Shown here: positions 2,081 to 5,142 of the stretch, in pieces
Layout of the letters: the number at the start of each line of letters is the position of its first letter
Numbering within the stretch: the first letter of the stretch is position 1
Origin: a virus
Lineage: Duplodnaviria; Heunggongvirae; Uroviricota; Caudoviricetes
Virus record (IMG/VR): IMGVR_UViG_2693429584_000012
Reading direction: 5' to 3' (one strand)
DNA length: 5,142 nucleotides
Notes under the pieces: model-generated
Seen by the model: only the letters and a program-made list of their open reading frames with translations
The model's database searches: none
Told to the model about the DNA's origin: nothing
Position numbers and translations under genes: made by a program

Positions 2081-2700
2081 GACTCGAAAGCGTAGCTAAA
2101 TTTCATTCGCCAAAAAGCCCGATGATGAGCGACTCACCACGGGCTACGGCTTCTGACTCTCTTTCTGGTACTGATGTGATGGCTGCTATGGGGATGGCGC
2201 AATCACAAGCCGGATTCGGAATGGCTGCATTCTGCGGTAAGCATGAACTCAGCCAGAACGACAAACAAAAGGCTATCAACTATCTGATGCAATTTGCACA
2301 CAAGGTATCGGGGAAATACCGTGGTGTGGCAAAGCTCGAAGGAAATACTAAGGCAAAGGTACTGCAAGTGCTCGCAACATTCGCTTATGCGGATTATTGC
2401 CGTAGTGCCGCTACGCCGGGCGCAAGATGCAGAGATTGCCACGGTACAGGCCGTGCGGTTGATATAGCCAAAACAGAGCAGTGGGGGATAGTTGCTGAGA
2501 AAGAGTGCGGAAGATGTAAAGGCGTCGGTTATTCAAGAATGCCAGCAAGCGCCGCATATCGCGCTGTGACGATGCTAATCCCAAACCTTACCCAACCCAC
2601 CTGGTCACGCACTGTTAAGCCGCTGTATGACGCTCTGGTTGTGCAATGCCACAAGGAAGAGTCAATCGCAGACAACATTTTGAATGCGATCACACGTTAG
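2077..2700 (+). CDS. Q: Late gene antiterminator Q (lambda Q family)
   Basis: 207-aa [67 protein letters not shown]... with a CRDCHGTG...CGRCKGVG zinc-binding motif, essentially lambda Q as recalled. Its ATG overlaps the phosphatase stop (ATGA). Confidence 0.95.
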
Positions 2701-2742
2701 CGCCATGATTGCCACGGATGGCAACATATTAACGGCATAATA

Positions 2743-2790
2743 TTGACTTTTTGAATAACTTTGGGGAAACTTGACACCAATAATGGGCGT
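2743..2790 (+). promoter_or_regulatory. Late promoter pR' with overlapping qut (Q-utilisation) site
   Basis: About 40 bp after the Q stop: TTGACT (2743..2748), a 17-bp spacer TTTTGAATAACTTTGGG, then GAAACT (2766..2771). This aligns position by position with lambda pR' (TTGACT-TATTGAATAAAATTGGG-TAAATT) as recalled. It is followed by TGACACCAATAATGGG, containing a -10-like AATAAT in the position of the lambda sigma70 pause-inducing element. Confidence 0.6.
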
Positions 2791-2912
2791 TTTTTACATG
2801 TCATTGATGAGTCTCAATAACCTGCCGCCGAGTAGTTTTTATGCTCTGAATTGTATTTGTGTAGTAAACATGCTGACTGCAATGTAATAGAGTTTTTTTA
2901 GCCTGTAACCTC

Positions 2913-2962
2913 TTGACGGCATTGAATTGCTTTTGTTATGAGTTGTAAGCCAATGTTATCAT
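2913..2962 (+). promoter_or_regulatory. Candidate sigma70 promoter(s) of the cargo membrane-protein gene
   Basis: Option 1: TTGACG (2913..2918) with an extended -10 TGtTATGAG (2934..2942). Option 2: TTGTTA (2933..2938) with an extended -10 TGtTATCAT (2954..2962). Either would start transcription just upstream of the GGGGTGG Shine-Dalgarno and the ATG at 2980. Predicted by eye only. Confidence 0.35.
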
Positions 2963-2979
2963 CTTGTATTGGGGTGGTT

Positions 2980-3696
2980 ATGAAGGATGGTGCGCTGCTC
3001 AGGAGTTCTTCACTTTTTATTGCCTACATGGGATGCCTTGGATGGGGGAGTGCTTATTTCTATGGATGGGGTACTTCTTTTTACTACGGCTTCCCATGGT
3101 GGATTGTAGGTGCAGGTGTTGATGATGTTGCCAGAAGTTTATTTTTTGCAGTTATCGTCATTGCTATATTTCTTATCGGTTGGGGTATTGGTGTTGTATT
3201 CTTTTTCGCAGTGAAAAGAAAACATTCTATGCAAGAGCTAAATGTATTTCGCCTTTATTTTGCTGTGGAATTATTGTTTGTGCCGGCAATTATTGAGTTT
3301 TCTATATTGAGACAGAAGATTCAGGTACCTCTTTTGCTACTGTCAGCAGCGATTGCGCTGGCGGTTACAATTTCGATAAGATCTTATGGGCGATTTTTAT
3401 CGGTATCATGCTTCTATGATAAGCCATTTATAAAAAAACATTTTTTTGAGATTGTGATGATTGCTTTTGTGGCATATTTCTGGCTTTTTTCATTTCTGAC
3501 AGGATATTACAAACCACAGTTTAAGAAAGAATATGAAATGATTAATTATAATGATGGTTGGTATTATGTTCTTGCTCGTTATGATAATTGTCTGGTTTTG
3601 TCTACTTCTTTCAATGCAGGTAGTAAAAGGTTTGTCATTTATCAATCAGCACAAGATAAGAATCTTCAGGTTGATATTGTAAGGACCAGAATTTAA
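2980..3696 (+). CDS. Hypothetical polytopic inner-membrane protein (cargo/moron gene; about 4-5 predicted transmembrane segments plus a ~65-residue C-terminal soluble domain); function unknown
   Basis: Long ORF in frame 1 ending TAA 3694..3696. The preferred start is ATG 2980, preceded by GGGGTGG 3 nt upstream; the longest-ORF start is ATG 2938, which has no RBS and lies inside the predicted promoter. Hydrophobic stretches include SLFFAVIVIAIFLIGWGIGVVFFFAV, LYFAVELLFVPAIIEFSIL, VPLLLLSAAIALAVTISI and FFEIVMIAFVAYFWLFSFLTGYY. The gene is strongly AT-rich compared with the flanking phage genes. I recognise no homolog. Confidence 0.7.
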   Translation: MKDGALLRSSSLFIAYMGCLGWGSAYFYGWGTSFYYGFPWWIVGAGVDDVARSLFFAVIVIAIFLIGWGIGVVFFFAVKRKHSMQELNVFRLYFAVELLFVPAIIEFSILRQKIQVPLLLLSAAIALAVTISIRSYGRFLSVSCFYDKPFIKKHFFEIVMIAFVAYFWLFSFLTGYYKPQFKKEYEMINYNDGWYYVLARYDNCLVLSTSFNAGSKRFVIYQSAQDKNLQVDIVRTRI

Positions 3697-3829
3697 TTGG
3701 CTGCATAAATAATATTTTAAGTTGCAAGTTGGCTATTCGTAGGAATAGAACCTTAGGCATGCTGAATGCGTTTTCTGAACATTGTTTTATAAACTGTGTC
3801 TGCTTGCTGTTGTGATCCTGCTTTTAGTG

Positions 3830-3940
3830 ATGGTGATGATGGATTTCACCAGCAGGATAATGTTGGTACTGACTGATGGCGCTCTGGTCTGCGGCATTGT
3901 GGTATTGCTGTGGCCGATGATGAAAGAACAGAATGAATAA
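3830..3940 (+). CDS. Candidate small hydrophobic (single-TM) peptide, 26-36 aa depending on start; speculative
   Basis: Frame 2 ORF MVMMDFTSRIMLVLTDGALVCGIVVLLWPMMKEQNE ending TAA 3938..3940. Alternative starts are ATG 3836, 3839 or 3860. It has a hydrophobic core with a charged C-terminal tail. No convincing Shine-Dalgarno; it could be a chance ORF or a gene remnant. Confidence 0.2.
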   Translation: MVMMDFTSRIMLVLTDGALVCGIVVLLWPMMKEQNE

Positions 3941-3943
3941 TTC

Positions 3944-3972
3944 TTGACTTTTTTGTTTACTGTTTATTAAAA
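3944..3972 (+). promoter_or_regulatory. Promoter-like element sharing the ATAAT..TTGACTTTTT core with pR'
   Basis: TTGACT at 3944..3949 followed by a T-rich spacer and TATTAA/TTAAAA -10-like hexamers at 3965..3972. The -35 side resembles the pR' -35 region at 2737..2753. Weak -10; speculative. Confidence 0.25.
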
Positions 3973-4126
3973 AATCAACCGCATGGTGAATCCTCCTTGG
4001 AGGGGCTAAATGATCGAGTTTTAAGGGCACGTAGCGAGTTCTGTTTGATCATTGCAGAACTTAGCGGGAGGCGCCATGCGTACATCACTAATGTTATTTC
4101 CTTCTATCATTTTCCTTGTGAGTTCT

Positions 4127-4153
4127 GGCTGCGCATGGCGCGGCCTTTTTTTT
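4127..4153 (+). terminator. Rho-independent (intrinsic) terminator
   Basis: GGCTGCGC (4127..4134), loop ATG, GCGCGGCC (4138..4145) forms an 8-bp GC-rich stem with one U-G wobble, followed immediately by TTTTTTTT (4146..4153). It lies 87 nt upstream of the nanS-p start. Confidence 0.65.
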
Positions 4154-4239
4154 ATGACCTGCCACTGGCAGATGGTCATCCTGTGATTTGATTCCGCTTC
4201 CGGCTTTTTAACTCTGTTCCTCTACACGGGAGAAATTCG

Positions 4240-5142
4240 ATGTCGATTAAACATTACGATGTTGTCAGGGCGGCGTCGCCGTCAGACCTTGCGGAAAAGC
4301 TGACACACAAACTGAAAGAGGGCTGGCAGCCATACGGCGGATCGGTTGCCATTACGCCGTACACACTGATGCAGGCGGTGGCTATTGAAGGAGAGCCACA
4401 GGTCGGCCCTTCATCTGAGCCGGATTGGTACTACGTCATCGTACTGGCCGGGCAGTCCAATGCCATGGCTTACGGTGAAGGGCTTCCGCTGCCGGATTCA
4501 TACGATGCTCCGGATCCGCGCATTAAACAGCTGGCGCGCCGCAGTACAGTGACGCCGGGCGGGGCTGCCTGCAGATATAACGATATTATTCCGGCTGACC
4601 ACTGTCTGCATGATGTGCAGGATATGAGTACGCTGAATCATCCGAGGGCTGACCTGAGCAAAGGGCAGTACGGCTGTGTCGGCCAGGGTTTACATATTGC
4701 CAAAAAACTGCTCCCGTATATCCCGAATAACGCGGGGATCCTGCTGGTACCATGCTGTCGTGGTGGTTCGGCATTTACCCAGGGCGCGGAGGGGACATTC
4801 AGCGAGTCCACGGGGGCCAGTCAGGATTCGGCACGCTGGGGGGTGGGCAAGCCGTTATATCAGGATCTGATTTCCCGCACAAAAGCGGCATTGCAGAAAA
4901 ATCCCAAAAACGTTCTGCTGGCCGTCTGCTGGATGCAGGGTGAGTTTGACATGAGCGCCGCCACCCACGTACAGCAACCTGCGCTGTTTACAGCCATGCT
5001 GACACAGTTTCGTGCTGACCTCTCCGTGTTTAACGCGCAGTACCATGGTGGCAGTGCTGCAGATGTGCCGTGGGTTTGTGGTGACACGACGTATTACTGG
5101 AAAAATACATACGCTACCCAGTACGACACCGTGTACGGCGGG
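4240..5142 (+). CDS. nanS: Prophage-encoded sialate O-acetylesterase (NanS-p type; DUF1737-like N-terminal domain plus SASA/SGNH esterase domain), 5' partial; continues past window end
   Basis: ATG 4240 preceded by GGGAG at 4228..4232. Frame 1 is open for 301 codons to the window edge: MSIKHYDVVRAASPSDLAEKLTHKLKEGWQPYGGSVAITPYTLMQAVAIEGE...DWYYVIVLAGQSNAMAYGEG..., with the GQSN catalytic-serine block typical of SASA-family esterases. Missing from the ORF track only because there is no stop inside the window. Confidence 0.8.
   Translation, partial: MSIKHYDVVRAASPSDLAEKLTHKLKEGWQPYGGSVAITPYTLMQAVAIEGEPQVGPSSEPDWYYVIVLAGQSNAMAYGEGLPLPDSYDAPDPRIKQLARRSTVTPGGAACRYNDIIPADHCLHDVQDMSTLNHPRADLSKGQYGCVGQGLHIAKKLLPYIPNNAGILLVPCCRGGSAFTQGAEGTFSESTGASQDSARWGVGKPLYQDLISRTKAALQKNPKNVLLAVCWMQGEFDMSAATHVQQPALFTAMLTQFRADLSVFNAQYHGGSAADVPWVCGDTTYYWKNTYATQYDTVYGG

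Follow-up and report, generated by a model that had tools for sequence, protein, structure and literature searches.

In its textbook form, the Q cassette of lambdoid phages has a terminator right after the late promoter pR', so that lysogens make only a short RNA from it. The late cassette of lambda comprises Q, pR', qut, tR' and the 6S RNA, with a pause at +16/+17. Its Q-binding element is a 13-bp site between the -35 and -10 hexamers that is contacted at positions 1–4 and 11–13, and a -35-like element serves sigma region 4 as its site when Q loads (PMC9388147). Both sigma-70 pausing and Q-dependent arrest become stronger in vitro when the -10-like element has the consensus sequence and GGG comes after it (PMC4005639), and the scrunched pause has the consensus T+14 N Y+16 G+17 (PMC9191641). 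Late promoters of the pR' kind are described as constitutively on in lysogens, their transcripts ending at tR' (Sy et al. 2020, PMC7547250); in Stx phages the PR'-tR' unit makes the StxS sRNA (PMC7547250), and sRNA genes border the cargo site on its 3' side (Tree et al. 2014, PMC4104026).

We analysed a 5,142-nt stretch of DNA (the window) from a virus of the Caudoviricetes (IMG/VR record IMGVR_UViG_2693429584_000012) that covers the nin-to-late junction of a lambdoid phage; the genes and signals located below are all on its plus strand. Upstream of pR' it carries a NinB-like remnant, NinF, NinG, a Ser/Thr phosphatase and a Q gene of 207 aa, and Q is followed by an intergenic promoter region, an AT-rich cargo block, an sRNA-like element with a terminator and an esterase gene. 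Judged from its sequence, this arrangement is a variant of the known Q/pR' system, new in its missing proximal terminator. It resembles that of Stx phages in a late promoter that would be constitutive in lysogens and in accessory cargo placed between pR' and the esterase and lysis genes; whereas in Stx phages an immediate tR' yields a short sRNA and leaves stx dependent on Q, the window has no such terminator that we can detect, and a long Q-independent transcript is predicted. Its cargo also resembles lambdoid morons, which it matches in candidate promoters of its own, a strong terminator after it, a high A+T content and membrane proteins as products, but differs from them in lying inside the transcription unit of a constitutive late promoter as well, with no terminator between.

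The Q gene and the pR' region

The Q gene (2077–2700) is intact and encodes a lambda-type antiterminator (Pfam PF03589 Antiterm, E = 1e-57) that is identical to lambda Q at 203 of 207 residues (98%), and pR' lies directly downstream of it, as in lambda. The -35 hexamer TTGACT (2743–2748) matches the consensus at five of six positions and is followed by a 17-nt spacer, TTTTGAATAACTTTGGG (2749–2765), which should carry the Q-binding element and shares 14 of its 17 bases with the lambda spacer TATTGAATAAAATTGGG; the changes fall at -28, -19 and -18, and -28 and -18 are variable in other lambda-type phages too. The -10 hexamer (2766–2771) is GAAACT, and 24 of the 29 bases from the -35 through the -10 are as in lambda. 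After the -10 the window continues with TGACACC and then AATAATGGG (2779–2787), against a lambda order of TTGACT / TATTGAATAAAATTGGG / TAAATT / TGACTC / AACGATGGG, and is one base longer than lambda from the -10 to the pause element.

This region also holds the remaining parts of a lambda-type late promoter. The -35-like element TTGACA (2771–2776), presumably the site of sigma region 4 in the Q-loading complex, stands where lambda has TTGACT and shares its TTGAC, with 2 nt between it and the pause element compared to 1 nt in lambda. By alignment, +1 is predicted at A2779, and the sigma-dependent pause element AATAAT fills +1 to +6, where lambda has AACGAT; the discriminator-like triplet GGG comes next in both (2779–2787 for the whole element). 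The initial annotation had described a -35 and spacer nearly identical to those of lambda pR', a GAAACT in place of the lambda TAAATT and a -10-like AATAAT at the position of the lambda pause element, and on all three points the alignment agrees with it: the -35 is identical, the spacer differs at three bases and the two other motifs lie where they had been placed.

In BLAST searches, positions 2704–2787 match the annotated pR'/qut regions of HK97, HK022, P22, HK620 and others at 88–94%, and the matches end at 2786–2787, that is, lambda-type homology ends at GGG. Because of these matches and the near-identity of Q, the likeness of pR' to that of lambda reflects homology and not chance. We therefore read positions 2743–2787 as a genuine homologue of lambda pR'/qut, which, as far as sequence can tell, fits the lambda Q/pR'/qut family in every tested respect save one, the promoter-proximal terminator.

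Two further promoter arrangements were considered here and rejected. AATAAT as an independent promoter has no -35-like hexamer 16–18 bp upstream (the best candidate matches at one of six positions), and TTGACA (2771–2776) as the -35 of a downstream -10 finds TTACAT and TACATG at the right spacing, each of which is without a key position. The Sakai prophage Sp4 carries an antiterminator of another kind.

As AATAAT is closer to the consensus than AACGAT, a stronger pause is expected in the window, following the in vitro results for such elements (PMC4005639). The adjoining leader segment, 2788–2819, has neither lambda nor phage 434 homology (the limits are those of the BLAST matches, lambda-type homology ending at 2786–2787 and 434 homology beginning at 2819) and contains a T6 at 2790–2795 (+12 to +17). 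Positions +14 to +17 read TTTT, so T+14 and Y+16 of the scrunched-pause consensus are there and G+17, present in the lambda cassette, is missing. The T+14 N Y+16 G+17 feature tunes the pause and is not strictly defining for the cassette; a near-consensus pause element without G+17, the base that favours on-pathway scrunching, could hold back or arrest a large share of the complexes. With its AATAAT, 2-nt gap to the -35-like element, missing G+17 and altered -10, the window offers natural variants for work on Q loading.

Terminator search and the phage 434 join

In the initial annotation, no hairpin followed by a U-run had been seen between 2790 and 4126, and the first strong terminator had been placed at 4127–4153. 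Both statements hold in three heuristic searches with lambda tR', the annotated phage 434 terminator and the 4127 hairpin as positive controls. A built-in terminator scan returned no site between 2790 and 4126. A constrained-hairpin search at every T-rich tail found no compact hairpin beside a U-run in the same interval: the leader yields long, interrupted pairings only (-1.6 to -8 kcal/mol), and where the coding region has longer pairings, no T-run good enough for a terminator comes after them, compared to -24.3 kcal/mol for lambda tR', -8.5 for the phage 434 terminator and -14.0 for 4127–4145. Finally, a TransTermHP-style scorer that we wrote ourselves recovered all three controls (hairpin/tail scores of -8.8/-4.6, -9.5/-4.9 and -13.8/-5.95) and found nothing in 2779–3190 even at a hairpin score ≤ -2 and a tail score ≤ -2.5, no strong terminator between 2790 and 2940, and background-level matches only in the coding region.

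The first strong intrinsic terminator after pR' consists of a hairpin at 4127–4145 and a T8 at 4146–4153 (roughly +1349 to +1375). It is part of the STnc100-like element described below and is annotated as a terminator in phage 434; at least one terminator, this one, lies between pR' and the lysis genes. RNAfold energies separate it from the leader when compared with shuffled sequences. The leader (2779–2905) folds at -22.0 kcal/mol (z = +0.49) and its part 2840–2902 at -10.4 kcal/mol (z = -0.13), compared to -16.1 kcal/mol (z = -3.2) for the terminator (4115–4156) and -26.9 kcal/mol (z = -5.4) for lambda tR'.

The missing proximal terminator has left a trace. At 2820–2842 the window carries AACCTGCCGCCGAGTAG followed by TTTTTA, which aligns to the annotated terminator of phage 434 (GenBank OL657226) and which we read as its decayed relic. 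At the homologous place phage 434 has an intact, annotated terminator of ACCCGCTGCCGAGTGGGT plus T8, whereas the aligned window sequence is ACCTGCCGCCGAGTAG plus T5, with three substitutions and with four bases missing at the junction of stem and T-run in the alignment. The stem is destroyed: the relic (folded as 2800–2845) reaches only -4.7 kcal/mol (z = +0.31), compared to -13.7 kcal/mol (z = -3.1) for the phage 434 terminator. With the hairpin broken and the T-run shortened, the first effective intrinsic terminator is therefore expected about 1.35 kb downstream. The decayed form is found in all 70 loci of the sub-lineage to which the window belongs.

Homology to phage 434 begins at 2819 and reaches 99% identity from 2836, the first ~17 bases being more diverged. 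Homology thus switches at this place: a lambda-type Q-pR' module adjoins cargo of the 434 type, and the join lies immediately ahead of the terminator, which has since decayed. Phage 434 has the order Q82-like gene, terminator, the same membrane-protein gene, TciB, terminator and esterase; it shares with the window the 3' part of the leader, the membrane-protein gene, TciB, the 4127-type terminator and the esterase, and differs in its Q82-like antiterminator, its different promoter and its intact terminator at the position of the relic. A candidate promoter in phage 434, TTGCAA-N17-TATACT, overlaps the last codons of the Q82-like gene (locus L001, 2418–2507); only ~40–65 nt separate it from the annotated terminator downstream, which would leave phage 434 with a very short leader RNA. 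In another locus, L042, window-type sequence gives way to 434-type sequence right after the relic (GCCCTGAGTTGTACTTGTACGG..., corresponding to window ~2843–2900), which suggests recombination near this point.

Transcription might still end in the leader by other means, through partial termination at the U5 (2836–2840) or the U7 (2893–2899), through Rho acting in the 201-nt untranslated leader, or through arrest or release at the pause and its T6. We regard such a non-canonical stop as quite unlikely. Both U-runs are real, and a weak, imperfect 49-nt pairing of -7.3 kcal/mol abuts the U7 (2844–2899), but neither site passes the permissive cut-offs that recover all three controls, the latter pairing is not terminator-like (z = -0.13) and the fold energies are at the level of shuffled sequence. 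A hairpin before the U7 conserved through compensatory changes was also considered and rejected: a comparison of the window with phage 434 by eye shows a mix of neutral changes and changes that improve pairing, and folding equals that of shuffled sequence. Rho-dependent termination is rated unlikely as well, there being no C-rich, G-poor window: the GC skew is positive throughout, the leader holds 45 G and 29 C, and no rut-like tract was found, C/G exceeding 1 in 1% of 78-nt windows, all beside the 4127 terminator. At the pause, polymerase is delayed, and pausing as such does not normally release it. What favours a stop there is the missing G+17 of the scrunch consensus together with the near-consensus AATAAT and GGG, a combination of the kind that prolongs pausing and arrest in vitro (PMC4005639). 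No tRNA genes of the sort present in Stx phages were found in the leader, nor any Rfam family at E-values up to 1.

We then placed the window among other phages through a pattern scan of IMG/VR, which gave 120 loci with a lambda-type pR', all scored with the same self-written scorer. The first strong terminator lies at about +185 in leaders of the lambda/P22 type and at about +51 in those of the HK97/HK022 type, whereas it lies at +1354 to +1377 in all 15 window-type loci with enough sequence. Over about 100 other lambda-type pR' loci, one of the first two positions is the usual one. For the window itself it is at about +1365, with two protein genes before it and no tR' at ~+190, where lambda has its own. 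As few exceptions exist, a missing proximal terminator is rare among lambda-type pR' loci without being unique to the lineage of the window. The exceptions include L118, L094, L021 and L037, the first two of which also have no normal proximal terminator. In L118, an HNH-endonuclease-like ORF of 163 aa is inserted in the 6S leader (~+160 to +690), ahead of the remaining lambda leader; in L094 the lambda tR' hairpin is reduced to its 3' half (~+100 to +140), followed by apparent tRNA genes; and L021 and L037 have single-base changes in the tR' stem (~+140 to +190), TTTCGTGA and TTTAGGGA for TTTCGGGA, that take it below the terminator cut-off of the self-written scorer and may make these two loci natural tR'-weakening variants.

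Distribution and the GAAACT -10

Positions 2690–2960 are found at ≥ 80% coverage in 572 of 5,426 complete E. coli genomes (~10%), in 556 of the 572 at ≥ 99% identity, and the carriers among the matches listed are mostly O157:H7, O145 and O111. In O157:H7 Sakai the copy belongs to the defective prophage Sp17 at ssrA, where Q is ECs_3501; between the promoter and a point near the end of TciB, Sp17 and the window differ at only three positions. On the minus strand of NC_002695.2, the Sp17 counterparts lie at 3,487,816 (predicted pR' start), 3,487,759–3,487,755 (U5 of the relic), 3,487,702–3,487,696 (U7), 3,487,615 (cargo ATG) and about 3,486,450 (STnc100 terminator). Phage 2B8 (NC_049952) is identical to the window over 2700–2960 and 98.8% identical over 2650–4240. 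It is recorded as Lambda_2B8, a name in keeping with the scheme of Mathieu et al. 2020, who plaque-purified temperate phages from infant E. coli strains; we infer the link from the name.

This distribution bears on whether pR' works at all. Many carriers are defective prophages, such as the O157 Sp17, a 24-kb element interrupted by IS elements, and the promoter could accordingly be a dead relic with no regulatory meaning. We consider this very improbable. A plaque-forming lambdoid phage requires a working late promoter and Q site, so the presence of this exact promoter in 2B8, presumably a plaque-forming phage, argues against an inactive pR'; in addition, 64 of the 70 sub-lineage loci have an identical promoter and leader, and the Q gene is intact.

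The GAAACT hexamer itself predominates in this sub-lineage. It is present in 66 of the 70 loci, the other four (L089 and three of the L005 type) have TAAATT, and no intermediates occur. These four share with the window the spacer variant, the extra base, a GGG(C/T)GTTTTTT leader, the terminator relic and the cargo. All other lambda-type loci have TAAATT as well, and since the same hexamer is found both there and in four relatives with the same leader and cargo, GAAACT is derived. On the same comparison, we judge GAAACT to be later than the terminator-less layout. Across the 460 nt of 2338–2797, the window differs from L089 at 2766 and 2770 only, both within the -10, compared to 3.1% divergence over the whole alignment. 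Near-identity within this segment, between flanks ~3% apart, suggests either a recent recombination of the segment or a focal change of the -10. The clustering of the changes hints at selection or at one mutation that altered several bases, as a post hoc observation on one evolutionary event.

The initial annotation had called this -10 weakened. That is accurate as regards the match to the consensus TATAAT, which falls from four of six positions for TAAATT to three of six for GAAACT; a weaker promoter need not follow, as lambda PL (GATACT) and PR (GATAAT) also have G at -12. Lambda PL is a strong promoter, and the most critical positions of a -10, A at -11 and T at -7, are both kept in GAAACT. 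GAAACT probably lowers the constitutive output of pR' without abolishing it, although the change may also leave that output negligible.

Cargo genes and predicted transcription

Beyond the leader, the cargo region has a G+C content of 29–42% and could be silenced by H-NS. Its first ORF (2980–3696, with alternative starts at 2938 and 2953) encodes a predicted membrane protein of 238 aa that belongs to phrog_1521 (E = 2e-154), a family of unknown function, and has no Pfam match. Both phage 434 and Sakai, where it is intact (ECs_3500), have the same ORF annotated as encoding a membrane protein. It is followed by a TciB-like DUF3927 small membrane protein (3782–3940; PF13064, E = 3e-14; phrog_1470) and by a diverged, shortened STnc100-like sRNA element (3951–4156; Rfam RF02076, 37.7 bits, under the gathering score of 47), which contains the 4127–4153 terminator. 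The first gene past the terminator, of which the window holds the 5' part (4240–5142), encodes a NanS-p-like carbohydrate esterase with DUF1737 and SASA domains (PF08410, PF03629). Full-text literature searches for ECs3498–3501 gave nothing useful, and searches for TciB/DUF3927 returned unrelated papers only.

Because no promoter-proximal terminator stands in the way, pR' transcription into the cargo, a 1.3-kb block of accessory genes, is the simplest expectation. The window would then hold a functional lambda-type late cassette, with Q, pR', Q-binding element and sigma-dependent pause, in a mosaic lambdoid phage that has lost the proximal terminator. In a lysogen without Q, RNA polymerase would start at pR', pause at AATAAT/GGG (at +16 or so), cross the 201-nt leader, the gene for the 238-aa membrane protein and TciB, until the terminator in the STnc100-like element halts it, giving a 1.4-kb counterpart of the lambda 6S RNA that expresses the cargo. 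Q-modified polymerase would pass 4127–4153 and any later terminators into the esterase and lysis genes; late control would be kept, since Q is still needed past 4127–4153. The cargo would be on in lysogens and higher after induction, besides any transcription from its own candidate promoters. To the core of this reading, that Q-independent pR' transcripts cross the membrane-protein gene and TciB and end at 4127–4153, with Q needed beyond, we give an even chance.

The candidate promoters of the cargo lie in 2912–2962, a segment conserved in phage 434 and in the sub-lineage: TTGACG-N17-TTATGA, read directly from the sequence, and TTGTTA-N18-TATCAT with an upstream TG, from a consensus scan. Since in phage 434 this cargo sits behind a terminator that has been retained, it does not depend on pR' and probably has its own promoter; the presence of the same unit behind an intact terminator suggests that it is an autonomous moron in phage 434. 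The loss of the proximal terminator in the window may then be neutral decay, tolerated only because 4127–4153 still shields the lysis genes, with pR' firing weakly in the absence of Q (owing to GAAACT, a long sigma-dependent pause and possibly H-NS) and the cargo transcribed essentially from the 2912–2962 promoters. This alternative is possible, if rather doubtful. Apart from the situation in phage 434 and the candidate promoters upstream of the cargo ATG, it is favoured by the three-of-six match of the -10, by the AT-rich cargo and by the state of the cargo ORF, a homologue of which lies at 12264–13005 of locus L004. Of 57 GAAACT loci that extend far enough to judge it, 44 have this ORF intact, and in 13 it is truncated or frameshifted; in O157:H7 PV15-279, one of the latter, it is a RefSeq pseudogene. 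Truncation in about a quarter of these loci argues against strong selection for cargo expression in those hosts. Against weak firing, however, stand phage 2B8, which has the same exact sequence and needs an active pR' for its late genes, the promoter itself, with five of six -35 positions, a 17-bp spacer and A-11 and T-7 kept, the G that also begins the -10 hexamers of lambda PL and PR, and the four TAAATT relatives, which combine the same terminator-less layout with a standard -10.

A bolder form of the read-through model is doubtful in our view. In it, loss of tR' would have turned an idling late promoter into a lysogenic-conversion promoter, with a 1.4-kb Q-independent mRNA that carries the membrane protein, TciB and an sRNA-like 3' end, and the change from TAAATT to GAAACT would be a compensatory down-tuning of it, selected for since such an mRNA would be produced continuously.

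If read-through from pR' into the cargo does occur, the distance between promoter and terminator in a Q cassette would be evolvable, as seen here in a natural and common variant, and accessory genes could be placed in the constitutive part of a late unit, to be expressed in the lysogen and boosted on induction. As the variant is present in EHEC prophages, it bears on the expression of prophage cargo and of the neighbouring sRNAs STnc100 and AgvB. In Sakai Sp17 (locus L126, 26387–26639) a full STnc100 (144.7 bits), which there supplies the first terminator, is followed by the antisense anti-sRNA AgvB (96.5 bits), and the AgvB part is missing from the window, phage 2B8 and phage 434. Upstream of the cargo, positions 2933–2946 (TTGTTATGAGTTGT) fit the CII-box pattern TTGY-N6-TTGY and overlap both a candidate cargo promoter and the upstream alternative start; the phage 434 record has a CII binding site annotated at the homologous positions.
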